A stretch of 64,000 nucleotides of DNA from an uncultured Candidatus Micrarchaeota archaeon (lineage in GTDB: Archaea > Micrarchaeota > Micrarchaeia > Anstonellales > Bilamarchaeaceae), in NCBI GenBank assembly GCA_963714085.1, contig OY970229.1, forward strand, positions 160,001 to 224,000, written 5' to 3'. The first letter of the stretch is position 1. The number at the start of each line of letters is the position of its first letter. Positions 6,058-11,918 of the stretch are shown piece after piece. The position numbers and the translations under genes are program-made. The notes below the pieces were generated by a model. That model was given only the letters and a program-made list of their open reading frames with translations. It did not search any database and was not told the origin of the DNA.

Positions 6058-6345
6058 CTATTCCAGGGCCCTTTTCACCACGCGCGCTATGTCCGATGCG
6101 GTCGCGCCCTCAAGCACGGCGTGGTGCTCAAGAAGAGTCTCTAAAATCAGGTCCGCGATTCCTTGTTCGGCGCTGTCCGCCTCCACGCCCACGAGGTTCC
6201 TCTCCACCTCGCGCATCGCCTCTGGCGGGCGGAGCGAGAAGTCGCCGCTTATCTCTATCTTCTCTATGAAGTCGTGGTGCTCAACCTTCACGCGCACGAG
6301 CCTTCCGCTATGCAGCATCTCCTCTGCCCTGCCCCTCATCTCCAT
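6058..6345 (-). CDS. Stand-alone lipoate-protein ligase C-terminal-like domain protein
   Basis: IEKIEISGDFSLRPPEAMREVERNLVG matches the LplA C-terminal pattern. ATG at 6345 follows GGTGA and overlaps the end of the hydrogenase gene. Confidence 0.7.
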   Translation of the reverse strand: MEMRGRAEEMLHSGRLVRVKVEHHDFIEKIEISGDFSLRPPEAMREVERNLVGVEADSAEQGIADLILETLLEHHAVLEGATASDIARVVKRALE

Positions 6346-7634
6346 TTCACCTTCAGGAAATGCGTGGCGCAGGACATGCACGGGTCGAACGCCCGGATGA
6401 GGGTCTCGACCTCTTTCTGTATGCCGTCCGGTGTTTCGCCCTCGGTGACCCTCTGCTGGACCAGCCTGCCCACGGCCTTTTCCATGAGCACCTGGTTCTG
6501 GGCGGTCGGTATGACGAGGTTGGCGTACGTGAAGTTACCGGCCTTGTCCAGCCTGCCGTGGTAGTACAGGGTCCCCCTGGGCGCCTCCATGACCCCCACG
6601 CCCTCGGACTCCTTGGGCGTTATGCTCATGACAGGCTCCTGCCTGAAGTCGCAGCTTTCCAGCAGCTCTATGGAGGAGTCTATGCAGTGGACGATCTCGA
6701 TCGCCTGGGCGAGGTTGTTATGGTAGATATTGAAGGAGGGGAAGAGCTTGTGCTCGGAGAGGTCCTTGCGCGTCTTTTTGTTCATGGCCGTGCCGTTGAT
6801 GTTCATCCTCGCGAGCGCGCCGACCATGTAGGGCGTGCCCTGGAACCTGAAGCCGGAAGCCTGGGAGTACGGGATCACGCTCTCCTTGAAGAACCTCTCG
6901 AACCCGTGCTCCGGGATGCAGAAGCCCTTGGAGTGCGTGCATATCCCGTCGCCCATGTAGCTGTAGGTCTCGTTGACGTTCGCCACGAAGTCTATGTCCG
7001 GCATCCCGAAGCTGAAGTCCTTCTCCGCGAAGAGATGCACGAACTCCACCGCGCCCTCCCTCACCGCCTTGAGCTCGGACACTATGCCCTTCGCCTTATC
7101 CTTGGACGGGACGTGGAGGAAATGGCCCACGGCGGGGAACGGGGGGTGCACGGTCCTGCCCCCTATCTCGGACGAGAGCGAGTTGCCCGCCTGCTTTATC
7201 GCGAGCGCGCTATGGAGCAGCTCGTGCTCGGGCCCGGAGTCCGCGAATTCCAGCACGGAGTCCTTCCCGAACAGGTCCGGGAGCACGAAGAGGAAGAGGT
7301 GCATCGCATGGTCCCGGATGTTCACGCCGTGGAGCGTGAGGTCGCGCAGCATCCTGGTCTGCTCGGTCGGCTCGAATCCGAACGCGTGCTCTATGCATTT
7401 TATCGAGCACAGAAGATGCGCGGCCGAGCAGGTGCCGCATATCCTCGAGACGAGCTGGGGCACAGCGGCGTAGTTCTTGCCGCGGACCGCGAGCTCGAAG
7501 AAGCGCCTGTTCTCGAATATCTCGAGCTTGACGTCCTTGACCTCGCCCTTCCTCACCTTGAGCTCCAATGAAGCGTGGCCCTCTATCTTGCTCATGTCCG
7601 CGATGTTTATGTCGAAATCCTCCTGGTGCATCAT
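6336..7634 (-). CDS. hydA: [NiFe]-hydrogenase large subunit, group 3 (3b/sulfhydrogenase-alpha-like)
   Basis: KIEGH, L1 motif RICGTCSAAH, EAPRGTLYYH, L2 motif DPCMSCATH followed by a short C-terminal extension. Confidence 0.92.
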   Translation of the reverse strand: MMHQEDFDINIADMSKIEGHASLELKVRKGEVKDVKLEIFENRRFFELAVRGKNYAAVPQLVSRICGTCSAAHLLCSIKCIEHAFGFEPTEQTRMLRDLTLHGVNIRDHAMHLFLFVLPDLFGKDSVLEFADSGPEHELLHSALAIKQAGNSLSSEIGGRTVHPPFPAVGHFLHVPSKDKAKGIVSELKAVREGAVEFVHLFAEKDFSFGMPDIDFVANVNETYSYMGDGICTHSKGFCIPEHGFERFFKESVIPYSQASGFRFQGTPYMVGALARMNINGTAMNKKTRKDLSEHKLFPSFNIYHNNLAQAIEIVHCIDSSIELLESCDFRQEPVMSITPKESEGVGVMEAPRGTLYYHGRLDKAGNFTYANLVIPTAQNQVLMEKAVGRLVQQRVTEGETPDGIQKEVETLIRAFDPCMSCATHFLKVKWR

Positions 7635-8113
7635 CCCACTCCGAATTCAGCGATGTATCGCTCCAATAGCGCTACGAACTGCGTCGGAGCCATGGGGCAG
7701 CCGGGCAGGGAGTCGTCCACCTTCACTATCGCGCTCAGCGGGACTATCTTGTCGCGCAGATGGTGCTTCTCGAGGAACGGCCTTATCGTGCCGAGCATCA
7801 GCGGGGTGAAGGAGTTGCGCTGCCCTGCCGGGAGCCCGGTGCACGCGCACGCTCCCATCGCGACCAGCTTCTTCGACCGCTTGCGTATGTCTTTGAGCTC
7901 GTCCTCCTCCTTTTCCGTGGATATCGCGCCCTCTATGAACGCGACGTCGAACTCGCCGTGCTTGTTGTCGGTCTTGAGCTGGCGGCAGTGCTTGAACTCG
8001 ATCTTATCCTTCCACTCGAAATAGTACTGGTTCAGGAGCTCCACGAAGAGTATGGTGTTGTCCTCGGAGCAGGTGAACGTGAACCAGCCCACGGCCAGCT
8101 TCCTCTTTGCCAT
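7631..8113 (-). CDS. hydD: [NiFe]-hydrogenase small subunit, truncated (proximal-cluster domain only)
   Basis: DVAFIEGAI, LVAMGACACTG and VDDSLPGCP motifs; N-terminal motif reads TCSED; 160 aa. Confidence 0.85.
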   Translation of the reverse strand: MAKRKLAVGWFTFTCSEDNTILFVELLNQYYFEWKDKIEFKHCRQLKTDNKHGEFDVAFIEGAISTEKEEDELKDIRKRSKKLVAMGACACTGLPAGQRNSFTPLMLGTIRPFLEKHHLRDKIVPLSAIVKVDDSLPGCPMAPTQFVALLERYIAEFGVG

Positions 8114-8162
8114 GCGTCCTTATTCCATATCAGGTTAAAATAGATTACCTAATACGAACCCT

Positions 8163-8558
8163 TTGATGGAAAAAATCCTGGTGTTCGGGAACCCGCTCGT
8201 GGAGGGGGATTCGCTCCCGCTCCGGCTGCTGCCCAGCTTGAAAAAGGCCTTTCCGGGGATAGAGTTCGTGGAGTTCGACGCTGTGGAGGACCTGGAGAAG
8301 GCCGGTGAGGAGATAACCCTGCTGGACACCGTGCAGGGGATAGGAGAGGTGACGGTCTTCCACGGGATGGATTCCTTCTCCCAGAGCCCGCGCTTCAGCA
8401 TGCACGATTTCGACCTGCCGGTCTATCTCAGGCTGCTCACGAAGATGGGCATGGTGAAGAAGGTCACTATAATAGGAGTACCGGAAACAGGGAAAGAGGA
8501 CACGCTGAGACAAGCCGAGGAAGCGATATCGGGGCTGTTGGATGGAGAAGCTGATTGA
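8163..8558 (+). CDS. Hydrogenase maturation protease-like protein
   Basis: ILVFGNPLVEGDS, LLDTV and SMHDF motifs of the HycI/HybD family; divergent from the hydrogenase genes. Confidence 0.8.
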   Translation: MMEKILVFGNPLVEGDSLPLRLLPSLKKAFPGIEFVEFDAVEDLEKAGEEITLLDTVQGIGEVTVFHGMDSFSQSPRFSMHDFDLPVYLRLLTKMGMVKKVTIIGVPETGKEDTLRQAEEAISGLLDGEAD

Positions 8559-9189
8559 AATAAACGGCCGGATATACTCCGTCATACGGGTCACGTCCAC
8601 GAACAGGAACGCGATAGCCAGGCTCAAGGACGACAGGATAATCATCAGCGTCCCGCGCAGGTGGCCCCAGGGCGAGGCGGACGCGGTGGCTGGAAGGCTG
8701 GAGGCCCGCGCGATAAAGAGCATCTCCAAAGGGAGATGGGGCAGCCGCAGTATGAGGGGGCTGGAGTTCCAGCCTGGCCAGGAGCTGGAGATCCTCGGGA
8801 GAAGATTCAGGATAACTGGGAATTCCAAGCCGGAGAGGATACGCAAGGGAATAGCCAGGCGCGTGCTTCCGGACCTGGAAGCCAGGATAAGGATGATAAA
8901 CGAGGCGCATTTCAGGGCCGAGATAAGGCGCGTGTCGCTCCGGGACAACAGCAGCCGATGGGGCAGCTACTCCACCAAGGGCACGGTGAACCTGAATTTC
9001 AGGCTGCTCTTCGCGCCTCCGGAAATATTGGAATATGTGATAGTCCACGAGCTGGCGCACAGCAGATACCGCGGCCACGGGCCCAGGTTCTGGGGCGTGG
9101 TGGAGAAGCTGGTCCCGGATTACAAGGAGAAACGGAAGTGGCTCAGGGAGAACGGGCACACGCTGGGAACCGGACCATCTTTCCAGTGA
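8542..9189 (+). CDS. M48/YgjP(DUF45)-like zinc metallopeptidase
   Basis: SRWGSYS, LNFRL, EYVIVHELAH and HGPRFW motifs. Confidence 0.88.
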   Translation: MEKLIEINGRIYSVIRVTSTNRNAIARLKDDRIIISVPRRWPQGEADAVAGRLEARAIKSISKGRWGSRSMRGLEFQPGQELEILGRRFRITGNSKPERIRKGIARRVLPDLEARIRMINEAHFRAEIRRVSLRDNSSRWGSYSTKGTVNLNFRLLFAPPEILEYVIVHELAHSRYRGHGPRFWGVVEKLVPDYKEKRKWLRENGHTLGTGPSFQ

Positions 9190-9204
9190 TTGGGGATTTG
9201 AACC
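9172..9204. repeat. 33-bp direct repeat, copy 1 (M48 gene 3' end)
   Basis: GGACCATCTTTCCAGTGATTGGGGATTTGAACC, identical at 10310-10342. Confidence 0.95.
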
Positions 9205-9332
9205 TCCATAAATATCCAGTGTCTGCATTCAGCATTTGTGATATTCAAAGTTATTCTTCGTCAAATGTCATATTTGTCGCTTGAAATGGATAAAAACGAT
9301 AAATTTAAATACTGTTTTTATGTAATATATTT

Positions 9333-10247
9333 ATGGAGCATGCGCAGCCCAAAAACCGTAAACTTGAATTACGGCTTAAAGAAGGATTTCTTTCACCTAA
9401 TGTAAGAAGAGAACTCAAAGGACCCATTTCATGCATTACTACTATGAAGCCTATTGTTGAAGTTACATTTAATAGAAAGCCACCTGTTTTTGGAGCGATT
9501 GATAATACTAGACCCCGGCAGATTGTCGGTCCTAGCCAAAAACTTGAAACTCTTAAAACAATGGCAATGGCATTGAGGACATTTGGTGAAAAAGTTCGCA
9601 TAGCTGAATTAGTTGATATGGTAAGAAAAAACCTGGTCTATCCGTACCCTGGTTCTGGCTTAGAGGCCCGATTTGATGCTTTGGAAAATGATGCCAAACA
9701 AGATGATGATAAACGACTTTCATTGGGGAAAGGAGTGCGATCTGAAAATCTGTCCGTTTTTGTAGATGCTGGAATTGGCAAATGCAGGCATTTTGCTGCA
9801 CTTTATGGGATTCTTGGCGCTTCGGCTAATTTAGACGTAGAACTTTTAGGCGGAATTGTAAGAAATTTCAATAGACCTGACACTAAATTACCTGCTTTCA
9901 AATCAATCCCCTTGGGCGTACAAGTTGAGCATGCTTTCAATGAAGTTCATTTAAATGGCGAAAGGATTCCTGTTGATCCTACGGCAAACATGGTTTGTTT
10001 TGACGATTCATCAAAAGCAGTGCACTACGAAAATTATGGTGTATGCCAGTTCAAAGACGACGAGGTCTCAATCCATGCATCAGATAGAGTTTTGAGCATG
10101 ACACAGCAATTTAATCTTACACGAAGTGGTTTGATAGTAAGGATTAGTGTAGCTGGGGAACCCAAAGCCCCATTGACTGCTTCTTTTGATATGGAAATTC
10201 AAAGCGCTAAACCTATAGTTGAAGGAGTCGAAATCCAAGTTTCATGA
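9333..10247 (+). CDS. Transglutaminase/papain-like Cys-His-Asp domain protein, AT-rich
   Basis: GKCRHFAAL, EHAFNEV and VDPT give the triad; visibly AT-richer than its flanks. Confidence 0.7.
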   Translation: MEHAQPKNRKLELRLKEGFLSPNVRRELKGPISCITTMKPIVEVTFNRKPPVFGAIDNTRPRQIVGPSQKLETLKTMAMALRTFGEKVRIAELVDMVRKNLVYPYPGSGLEARFDALENDAKQDDDKRLSLGKGVRSENLSVFVDAGIGKCRHFAALYGILGASANLDVELLGGIVRNFNRPDTKLPAFKSIPLGVQVEHAFNEVHLNGERIPVDPTANMVCFDDSSKAVHYENYGVCQFKDDEVSIHASDRVLSMTQQFNLTRSGLIVRISVAGEPKAPLTASFDMEIQSAKPIVEGVEIQVS

Positions 10248-10309
10248 TTCATTCTTTCGCTCCGTTTCAGCTGCCTAGTAGCCTAATCCGTATAAAGACT
10301 GTTTCGGGT

Positions 10310-10342
10310 GGACCATCTTTCCAGTGATTGGGGATTTGAACC
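10310..10342. repeat. 33-bp direct repeat, copy 2
   Basis: Identical to 9172-9204. Confidence 0.95.
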
Positions 10343-10398
10343 CGAATTCGGTATAATGTCGCTTTTTAAGTATTAATGCGAAGGTTTAAATAAAGCGA

Positions 10399-11052
10399 AT
10401 GGGCAATGATATCATGGGAACGCCATCACTTAGGATGAAAAGCCTTGAGGATACCTGTAGAGATAGGCCCAGGGACAGGCTAACGGTGTATAAGCTGCCT
10501 GCTGAAAAATTGAATCTGCTAGGGACCGAGCTTAGATGCAGACTTGGCCCTACCGAAGCCGGAAATCTCCTTCGCGCTCTTTGCGAGGAAGACGATGCTA
10601 CGTTGGGGATGATCGGCGTCTCTCATGAAACGTTATCTGAACGATTGAAATCCCGGATACTGAATCCGAAAGCTACGGATAGAATCGATTTAAGCAGAGG
10701 CATCGAACACTGCCCATTCGGCAATGCGGGCTCATGCGACGTTCCTGAGCTATCTTCTGCAACGATCGCCCTCGTCAAAGTAGAATTGGATGCCGCACTG
10801 CGGTTTTCGCATCTGTTGGTCCATTTGGTCGCTGGGCACGGTTTTTTCGGATTTCCGGAACCGTCCTACACCGGCGTACCGGTCAGTACGTCCCGTGCGT
10901 GGCCCTTGGATCTCGCGCTCATGCTGGATTTGATTGACTCGGAGAAGCATGCGAGGGTAATTTCACAAGTCTATGGAGACGCGCTTACATGGAAAAGCCG
11001 ATTTTGGCCGGTTCGCGAGCTGGGACCAGGTCCTACTAGCGACTATAGATAG
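10399..11052 (+). CDS. Hypothetical protein
   Basis: 217-aa ORF after an AT-rich TATA-like region. Confidence 0.65.
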   Translation: MGNDIMGTPSLRMKSLEDTCRDRPRDRLTVYKLPAEKLNLLGTELRCRLGPTEAGNLLRALCEEDDATLGMIGVSHETLSERLKSRILNPKATDRIDLSRGIEHCPFGNAGSCDVPELSSATIALVKVELDAALRFSHLLVHLVAGHGFFGFPEPSYTGVPVSTSRAWPLDLALMLDLIDSEKHARVISQVYGDALTWKSRFWPVRELGPGPTSDYR

Positions 11053-11228
11053 AGTTGATTACTCCATCCGATCCATGCGAACAGAAGACATCGCATTTCA
11101 ATTCTTTTTAGGCCGATCCAAGCATTCTCTTCCTGGAACTGCTTTTCCTAGCCCTTGACGGAAATGGATTGGCGCCGATGCGCCCGCCCTATTGAAAAAG
11201 TTTTTTAAACGTTAACTAGGAAATCCGC

Positions 11229-11291
11229 TATGGCGATGAAGCTCACCAGGCACTAGACCGAACCGCCCTCACCGGGCTGATGGCTTCTACT
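11229..11291 (+). ncRNA. Fluoride (crcB-class) riboswitch
   Basis: TATGGCGATGAAGCTCACC...AACCGCCCTCACCGGGCTGATGGCTTCTAC. Shows GGCGATG start, P1 GGCGA/TCACC (one mismatch), P2 GCCC/GGGC, GCTGATG and pseudoknot GAAGC/GCTTC-TAC. A TTTTAAA box lies ~25 nt upstream. Confidence 0.8.
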
Positions 11292-11309
11292 TCCAGAGGG
11301 ACAGATGCT

Positions 11310-11462
11310 ATGAACGTTGAAGACGCAAGGGTATGCACGACATGCCTCATGAACACCGGAATGAACATTTTGTTGGCCAAGAAAGACGACGTGTTCGTAT
11401 GCCCCAAGAATCCTGCGCACAGGTTCAGGCTGGGAAAAGACGGCTACCTGAGATCGATTTAG
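11310..11462 (+). CDS. 50-aa zinc-ribbon-like micro-protein
   Basis: CTTC...CPKNPAH ligand set; GAGGG RBS-like element upstream of the ATG. Confidence 0.7.
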   Translation: MNVEDARVCTTCLMNTGMNILLAKKDDVFVCPKNPAHRFRLGKDGYLRSI

Positions 11463-11918
11463 CATTCGTATTCGAAGACGGTTTCCATGGACGCGGCTTG
11501 AGCCTCGGCGCGTCAATCGCTCTGGACGACCGGAAAACAAAAGATTAGCGTCTTTCACTCGTCGTCCTTAACCGGAGCAAGCTGCGGCTTGCAATTAAGC
11601 CTAAGGAAAGATTCGTCATACCCTGAGACGAGCGAAAAAAGAGATGCCTTGATTCCGTCAAACAATCGGATCCGCATGACTCCCTTTAGCCGGACCTTGT
11701 ATATAATGCCGCGTTTTCACGTCGGAGAGTTCCGGAAGGCCTGAAACGATGGCTTTGCACAGGAAAAACCGCGAAACGTGTCCCCAAACCATAGGAAACC
11801 CCGGCCTGCGGATGACGCTGACCCTAATCGCCGGTTTTTGGGTTAGGGCGCGCGCAGCGGAAAGAACGGTGTCAGAAAGAGGACTGACACGCTGAAGCAA
11901 AGCGTTTTATAACCTAGT

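Follow-up and report, generated by a model that had tools for sequence, protein, structure and literature searches.

An ordinary fluoride riboswitch leads a new gene family encoding a 50-residue, zinc-ribbon-like protein in Micrarchaeota

We show that, in the window, by which we mean the whole 64-kb stretch of Micrarchaeota DNA analysed here, a fluoride riboswitch of the known class directly precedes an ORF for a 50-aa protein with the ligand pattern of a zinc ribbon, and that this pairing recurs in other genomes. The riboswitch itself is ordinary; the gene family that it precedes is new. Our preferred reading, to which we give a probability of about 0.72, is that the riboswitch forms the leader of the zinc-ribbon mRNA and acts by translational release, that the module originated as a cassette, and that the protein is an adaptor resembling the N-terminal ribbon of RlmA (RlmA-N). 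The RNA is probably a fluoride ON switch, most likely translational, governing a new regulon member. The first-pass annotation of this DNA had proposed a new fluoride-response gene at this site, and a conserved, selected micro-ORF found repeatedly under a fluoride riboswitch keeps this as the best reading.

The aptamer call made in that annotation withstood the covariance-model check it had suggested: Rfam family RF01734 matches positions 11223-11296 with 42.2 bits, above its cut-off of 34 (E 2.5e-8), and gives the sole over-threshold match in the window among the 4227 Rfam families scanned. The aptamer proper spans 11232..11290 on the + strand and comprises P1 (11232-11235/11244-11247; three of four pairs formed, with C11234.A11245 unpaired), P3 (11265-11268/11274-11277, 4/4 pairs), a weak linker stem, which is a known option of this riboswitch class (PMC2864571 supplement, as far as accessible), and a pseudoknot between GAAGC at 11238-11242 and GCTTC at 11283-11287, in which all five of the pairs claimed earlier can be read from the sequence. 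The conserved GAUG and UGAUG core is canonical, and the linchpin positions A11280, U11281 and U11288 are spaced like the A40-U48 linchpin and U41 in the accessible part of PMC11077080, by a mapping of our own. Across 25 aligned aptamers the pseudoknot is paired in 125 of 125 cells, and 91% of all cells pair, compared with 27-54% in slid controls. By score and anatomy this appears to be a bona fide fluoride riboswitch, and by analogy with its class it would bind fluoride. Its presence in an archaeon, a domain in which the first-pass annotation called riboswitches rare, is no surprise, as archaeal fluoride riboswitches have already been published (PMC2864571, PMC4247193, PMC7266159 and PMC9495176, each as far as accessible).

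Upstream of the aptamer, an archaeal promoter-like BRE/TATA element (11194..11210, + strand), which may function as such, consists of a purine run at 11194-11200 and the TATA-like TTTTAAAC at 11203-11210, where a TATA box had been reported. The aptamer lies 29 nt 3' of this motif and 19 nt 5' of the ATG, and homologues keep the spacing: of 24 riboswitch/micro-ORF loci, 23 have a TATA-like motif that begins 26-32 nt upstream of the first G of the aptamer, the upstream DNA of the 24th being missing. The aptamer therefore probably begins the transcript, and would constitute the whole 5' leader of a short mRNA. No hairpin terminator and no sigma-70 promoter were found on the + strand at the locus; U-rich tails in homologues leave room for termination control. 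An alternative start at 11280 was rejected, as it falls inside the aptamer and homologues start at the position of 11310.

The putative expression platform (11283..11312, + strand) is drawn from the predicted fold, in which the 3' strand of the pseudoknot is able to pair over the Shine-Dalgarno-like GAGGGA at 11296-11301, the spacer and the start codon. The GAGGG described earlier as resembling a ribosome-binding site is indeed present at 11296-11300, and the 16S tail of the source genome (G000) implies a Shine-Dalgarno (SD) sequence of the GGAGGTGA type. When the aptamer is held in the predicted fold of the window copy, the unpaired probability of the AUG rises from 0.34 to 0.92, that of the SD goes from 0.55 to 0.42, and the modelled opening energy falls from 6.9 to 5.4 kcal/mol; here the pseudoknot strand covers mainly the spacer and the AUG, and the SD has drifted. 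For 19 of 24 loci the prediction has this strand pairing across the SD region, and SD accessibility increases with the aptamer held in 21 of 24, a result that is partly built into the constraint and is weakened by leader controls, in which 30% of 243 SD-bearing leaders of the source genome pair as well as the window pseudoknot strand (median over the 24 loci, 31%). Translational ON control is plausible on these models. TCACC does occur twice, at 11243 and 11269, as had been pointed out; the alternative pairing proposed for it did not hold up, as there is no GGTGA partner and its second copy falls within a variable loop, and for want of that partner TCACC was also ruled out as an anti-SD in the window copy.

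The 50-aa ORF spans 11310..11462 on the + strand, and its candidate metal ligands C9, C12, C31 and H37 (C-x2-C...C-x5-H) agree with the CxxC...CxxxxxH pattern of the first reading. Compared with its counterpart on metagenome contig L061, it shows 11 synonymous and two replacement changes (dN/dS 0.037, Fisher p 5e-7); the neighbouring lipoprotein gene gives 0.27 in the same comparison, and the median is 0.16 over 13 riboswitch-linked ORFs (74 of 78 pairs computable). The micro-ORF is conserved under strong purifying selection and is a real gene, whose product, given that selection, is probably translated. Over 98 sequences C9, C12 and C31 are invariant, and H37 and G45 nearly so. No Pfam or NCBIfam family was found for the protein, and in the ESM Atlas unnamed clusters stand at 0.91-0.92 and family-bearing clusters under 0.9. 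A profile search yielded 92 representatives, 87 of them under 70 aa; no longer or fused form gave a score, which is weak evidence, and a 400-aa cluster member considered as a long form proved to be an unrelated RtcB. The family occurs in 50 of 99 genomes of the window's taxonomic family and in 73 of 301 phylum genomes, usually in one or two copies.

The first-pass annotation had suggested testing whether homologues of the micro-ORF carry the aptamer too, and in part they do: there are 26 distinct riboswitch/micro-ORF loci, but 85 of 111 distinct micro-protein rows have no riboswitch, and the source genome has two such paralogues. The fold is thus not specific to fluoride. Rfam scans of 71 locus entries around further members detected aptamers solely at L077, L096, L097, L100 and L105 (L149-L168 were scanned with a self-built aptamer profile only). 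A quick tree of 108 rows and 52 columns places the 24 riboswitch-linked rows, interspersed with 30 unlinked ones, in a single branch of weak support (SH-aLRT 81); linkage requires five changes compared with 22 for shuffled labels, a distribution that would suit either a single ancient link that was later lost in places or a small number of independent recruitments. Among riboswitch-less paralogues, 38 of 83 leaders have GACCA no more than 75 nt from the start, compared with 65 of 975 long-ORF leaders in the source genome (examples are L016, L007, L006, L034-L039 and L044-L056); in one subgroup a GC hairpin also stands immediately ahead of the SD. GACCA is possibly a second cis-element or a start-site motif.

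As to how widespread the pairing is, searches with the RNA alone in 99 family genomes and 151 phylum genomes recovered 14 distinct over-threshold aptamers in 12 genomes, and the micro-ORF is the first gene for eight of the 14, in six of the 12 genomes (three times in G000, and in G071, G122, G227, G208 and G143). The other first genes are crcB, an exchanger and a Prenyltrans-repeat protein, two of each; the Prenyltrans-repeat protein of G125 was assigned by eye from its likeness to that of L076, and we take the type to be COG1689. Protein-led checks add G314 (36.7 bits) and the sub-threshold G095 and G293, so that, with protein-led and sub-threshold cases included, the pairing is found in nine genomes of families f1, f15, f18 and f30, all but f1 lying outside the order of the window; those of their micro-proteins that were compared are 30-58% identical to the window protein, the most divergent only 30-45%. 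Metagenome loci fetched with a riboswitch-linked query (n=18) include 11 with an over-threshold aptamer, one with none, and a further six that score with a self-built profile trained on the same loci. The loci are related and come partly from the same sample series, so the counts are not independent.

The commonest operon runs from riboswitch to micro-ORF to Na+/H+ exchanger. The gene next to the micro-ORF in the 26 loci is an intact cognate exchanger in eight, always 27-28 nt behind, an exchanger stub in three, a distant exchanger in one, a Prenyltrans-repeat protein in two and a dynamin-like GTPase in one; nothing was recognised in ten, and one reaches the contig end. Enolase and MFS genes flank several of these loci and HAD is among the neighbours. 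The accessible part of PMC11139923 counts Na+/H+ antiporters, enolase and HAD among the genes of the regulon. Aptamers that look decayed occur in the MNVED subgroup, to which the window copy belongs (L057/G095 at 28.7 bits, and L062 below cut-off). No CrcB match and no CLC match over cut-off was found in the nine pairing genomes, which are 56-96% complete; CrcB is rare in any case, in three of 99 family genomes. It is conceivable, though we would sooner doubt it, that in Micrarchaeota without Fluc or CLC-F a free RlmA-N-like ribbon is the main riboswitch effector, with a non-transport role at RNA or the ribosome, often accompanied by a CPA2-type exchanger that may export fluoride.

Several further arrangements were observed. 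A CPA2-like exchanger subfamily (L002 155-1309, G000:C1:487924-489078) is present in three of 99 family genomes, in every case behind a fluoride riboswitch; no CrcB was found in these three genomes, and the exchanger is a candidate fluoride-related transporter. Tandem arrangements, such as riboswitch, micro-ORF, second riboswitch, occur at L105 (G293), L071, L074 and L124/L127 (G198): the first aptamer of L105 carries some 50 inserted nt in P3, and the second leads an exchanger stub, L074 has a micro-protein paralogue without riboswitch on its enolase side, and G198 has aptamers before both MFS and exchanger genes. Further fluoride riboswitches of Micrarchaeota lead a Prenyltrans-repeat protein, a dynamin-like GTPase or both (L019, L071, L076, L123 and L125). 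The over-long gene call P0104 (cluster of P0007) has an N-terminal extension that reads like a translated fluoride aptamer, which suggests a further riboswitch-linked subgroup. Behind the third riboswitch copy, at L003 1008-1280, a 91-aa hydrophobic ORF without a Pfam or NCBIfam match begins 57 nt after the micro-ORF.

The source genome is a single 1.57-Mb contig, 87.65% complete by markers, in which no CrcB and no CLC was found and all three fluoride riboswitches directly lead a micro-ORF paralogue. In its second copy the micro-ORF is followed after 27 nt by a 385-aa PF00999 exchanger, the only PF00999 match in the genome. Behind the window copy, alignment with L061 and with this intact copy identifies a spacer and a dead exchanger stub (11463..11523, + strand), the stub itself covering about 35 nt (11487-11523), with an ATG at 11487 and a stop at 11499-11501. 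The earlier remark that no fluoride gene is adjacent is thus true today, but 11487-11523 is what is left of the exchanger still intact behind the paralogous copy. As regards control of fluoride-mitigation genes, the window copy has the stub only, and an intact exchanger lies behind the paralogous copy and at seven other loci. Contig L061, whose micro-protein is 96% identical and precedes the same lipoprotein gene, has a frameshifted remnant of about 85 nt that tblastn of the exchanger matches; the window has lost about 52 nt that L061 keeps, and both switch at the same point to unrelated DNA. All 37 shared aptamer bases are identical between the two. RNA and ORF stayed conserved after the exchanger was lost, and their selection after the cut suggests that the protein is useful without a linked transporter.

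The module lies in a segment (9170..11533, no strand assigned) that also holds a 304-aa transglutaminase-like ORF and a 217-aa ORF. Because G001, of the same genus, joins window positions 8007-9168 to 11534-11881 with 30 nt between, about 9170-11533 is an accessory segment, and the exchanger is cut at its right edge; GC content is 39-49% over 9223-11222, compared with 57% genome-wide. Beyond that edge, window 11534-11881 (L061 315-670; L204) is a stretch of about 350 nt that holds no conserved ORF and is 75-80% identical among three genus members, while synonymous sites of the genes flanking it differ at about 35%. It contains an inverted repeat near 11551-11626, is found in two of 99 family genomes and has no Rfam match; RNase P RNA was rejected as its identity, since that RNA lies elsewhere. 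On the other side of the segment, hydrogenase-like genes were recognised by eye at 6336-8113 (minus strand), and 8163-8558 resembles a HycI-like maturation protease (Pfam E 0.0002, below cut-off).

The AlphaFold2 model of the 50-aa protein (pLDDT 84, pTM 0.58) has a short helix and small beta-hairpins. With hhalign, E. coli RlmA residues 1-50, a comparison chosen beforehand and not drawn from an unbiased search, gave 93% with all four ligands aligned over 37 columns; controls gave 41% for a TFB-type ribbon (label from frame length), 12% for a fused Trm112p domain and 2% for YcaR. The top Foldseek row is again RlmA (1p91), a weak match (E 0.61, rmsd 1.8 over 26 columns), and a wide fold search was also weak (best Z 3.7), its rows including 2jny, many Rieske domains and Trm112 (3q87). 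In the accessible part of PMC11836899, Trm112-like, Rieske and RlmA_N domains belong to one ECOD homologous group, and that of PMC3152332 suggests rRNA contact for the RlmA finger and superposes it on Trm112. Sequence searches of solved structures with two profiles were uninformative (RlmA 1p91 at E 0.84). PF21302 has no match to the 50-aa protein at E up to 1, and matches 10 of 98 relatives weakly (best E 0.0016), below the Pfam threshold. The micro-protein looks like a free RlmA-N-type ribbon that falls short of the Pfam threshold and of the fusion that defines RlmA_N, and it would be expected to bind zinc.

We propose that, without fluoride, the 3' strand of the pseudoknot would pair over the ribosome-binding region and the start codon, and that binding of Mg-fluoride would lock the pseudoknot and free the start region, allowing translation to proceed. 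The ligand and the direction of control are taken from the riboswitch family and the translational step from folding. The module would have arrived as a cassette of riboswitch, micro-ORF and Na+/H+ exchanger, the exchanger then being cut off at the window site. Its product would be a soluble adaptor without enzymatic activity, slightly basic (+3) and shaped like RlmA-N. As a matter of judgement, the activity we prefer within the best reading, with a share well short of half, is binding of RNA or the translation machinery during fluoride stress; a methyltransferase partner, an accessory acting on the exchanger in trans and a metal buffer each receive an equal and clearly smaller share, and all other activities together slightly more than any one of these three. 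An RNA- or ribosome-binding protective adaptor is, in this sense, a guess.

The arrangement could instead be that of a passenger or relic, in which the riboswitch serves the exchanger, the micro-ORF, as a general small protein, rode along in a mobile cassette and the window copy is drifting towards constitutive or no expression. The close intact exchanger in eight of 26 loci and the stub in three would fit, as would the absence of the accessory segment from G001, an integrase beside L059, the decayed aptamers of L057 and L062, the weak modelled switching of the window copy and the frequency of riboswitch-less paralogues. Yet ORF (dN/dS 0.037) and aptamer (37/37 bases) were conserved after exchanger loss, the pairing occurs without an exchanger in families f15 and f18, the source genome keeps three copies, and in G080 and G198 the exchanger stands directly under a riboswitch with no micro-ORF; we regard this reading as unlikely, if far from fanciful. 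If instead the micro-ORF were a translational-coupling or leader-peptide device whose product is irrelevant, its place between the aptamer and the exchanger, at a constant spacing of 27-28 nt, would make sense, as would the MTGEY subgroup, in which the first codons can pair with the 3' strand of P1 at up to -16.5 kcal/mol. That pairing is absent from the window copy (-3.7 kcal/mol, with 59% of recodings as good), and the amino-acid conservation, with four metal ligands over 98 sequences, the strong purifying selection, the confident fold model and the many stand-alone copies with neither a downstream gene nor a riboswitch make such a device very improbable.

Another view would accept the protein as functional and make the family the Micrarchaeia stand-in for Trm112, the methyltransferase-activating hub, with fluoride control adding an extra copy. 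No stand-alone Trm112p gene was found in 99 family genomes, where all 14 matches sit in 304-333-aa frames; the source genome has an Mtq2/HemK-type enzyme, the Trm112 and RlmA fingers superpose (PMC3152332, accessible part), and 2jny and 3q87 are among the wide fold-search rows. We nevertheless hold this to be distinctly improbable, given hhalign values of 2% for YcaR and 12% for the fused Trm112p domain, Trm112p matches to three of 98 members (best E 0.041), an Mtq2-type enzyme in families f6 and f13, in which no micro-protein was found, and no methyltransferase noticed directly behind riboswitch-linked copies. The first-pass annotation had also raised, from the C.A mismatch in P1, a variant aptamer sensing a ligand other than fluoride. 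This mismatch at P1 pair 3 is in none of 24 crcB-alignment rows from the PMC2864571 supplement (the first 30 of 110 matches), and among 25 aptamers it is limited to those before micro-ORFs (12 of 18, and 0 of 7 others). Its carriers, however, are close kin, the remaining six micro-ORF aptamers have a normal pair there, and six C.A aptamers (L002, L022, L063, L066, L072 and L073) stand at the head of the micro-ORF/exchanger operon; within the MTGEY subgroup the A of the C.A strengthens the possible pairing with codons 2-4, a pairing the window copy lacks. The mismatch is a lineage trait. Against another ligand stand the canonical core, linchpin positions and pseudoknot, the typical fluoride-regulon genes beside micro-ORF aptamers, and the same GAAGC/GCUUC pseudoknot in the published alignment (PMC2864571 supplement, accessible part) and, in the genomes searched, before exchanger, crcB and other genes. 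We consider a different ligand unlikely and give the variant-aptamer idea hardly any credence.

The recurrent pairing of riboswitch and micro-ORF points to an undescribed part of the microbial fluoride response. Genes behind fluoride riboswitches have been the route to the discovery of fluoride exporters. In the Micrarchaeota genomes searched, the commonest first gene is an unannotated 50-aa protein that gene callers easily miss, and the source genome, only 1.57 Mb long and with neither Fluc nor CLC recognisable, keeps three regulated copies. The riboswitch provides a first functional handle on a protein family in 73 of 301 phylum genomes, and the micro-protein and its co-regulated exchanger are small and directly testable.

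We found no paper on the micro-protein family or on riboswitches of Micrarchaeota or DPANN in the mostly open-access literature covered, and a 50-aa zinc ribbon is not among the regulon genes named in the accessible parts of PMC11139923, PMC2864571, PMC7266159 and PMC9495176. Like Trm112/YcaR (PF03966), the micro-protein is a small free zinc ribbon, and RlmA_N shares their ECOD group (PMC11836899, accessible part); unlike them, it has His as fourth ligand, matches their profile poorly and shows no co-distribution with Mtq2. With the RlmA N-terminal ribbon (PF21302; 1p91) it shares the C-x2-C...C...H ligands and a closing hairpin with an aromatic and a Gly-aromatic motif. However, RlmA_N is fused to a class I methyltransferase, whereas the micro-protein is a stand-alone archaeal protein, the whole ORF being 50 aa, with a short helix and about six extra residues after C-x2-C. 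The crcB RNA upstream of TK0513-TK0514 in Thermococcus kodakarensis (PMC4247193, accessible part) is likewise archaeal and has a first gene that is not an exporter; there crcB follows, whereas the source genome yielded neither CrcB nor CLC and the zinc ribbon comes first. Relative to RF01734 as a whole, the RNA described here differs by the C.A mismatch in P1, by having no hairpin terminator found behind the aptamer and by the 50-aa zinc ribbon as its first gene, and it shares with that family an over-cut-off score, P1, P3 and the pseudoknot, the optional linker stem, the core nucleotides, the position in a 5' leader and, elsewhere, the association with Na+/H+ exchanger, crcB-DUF190, enolase and MFS genes.
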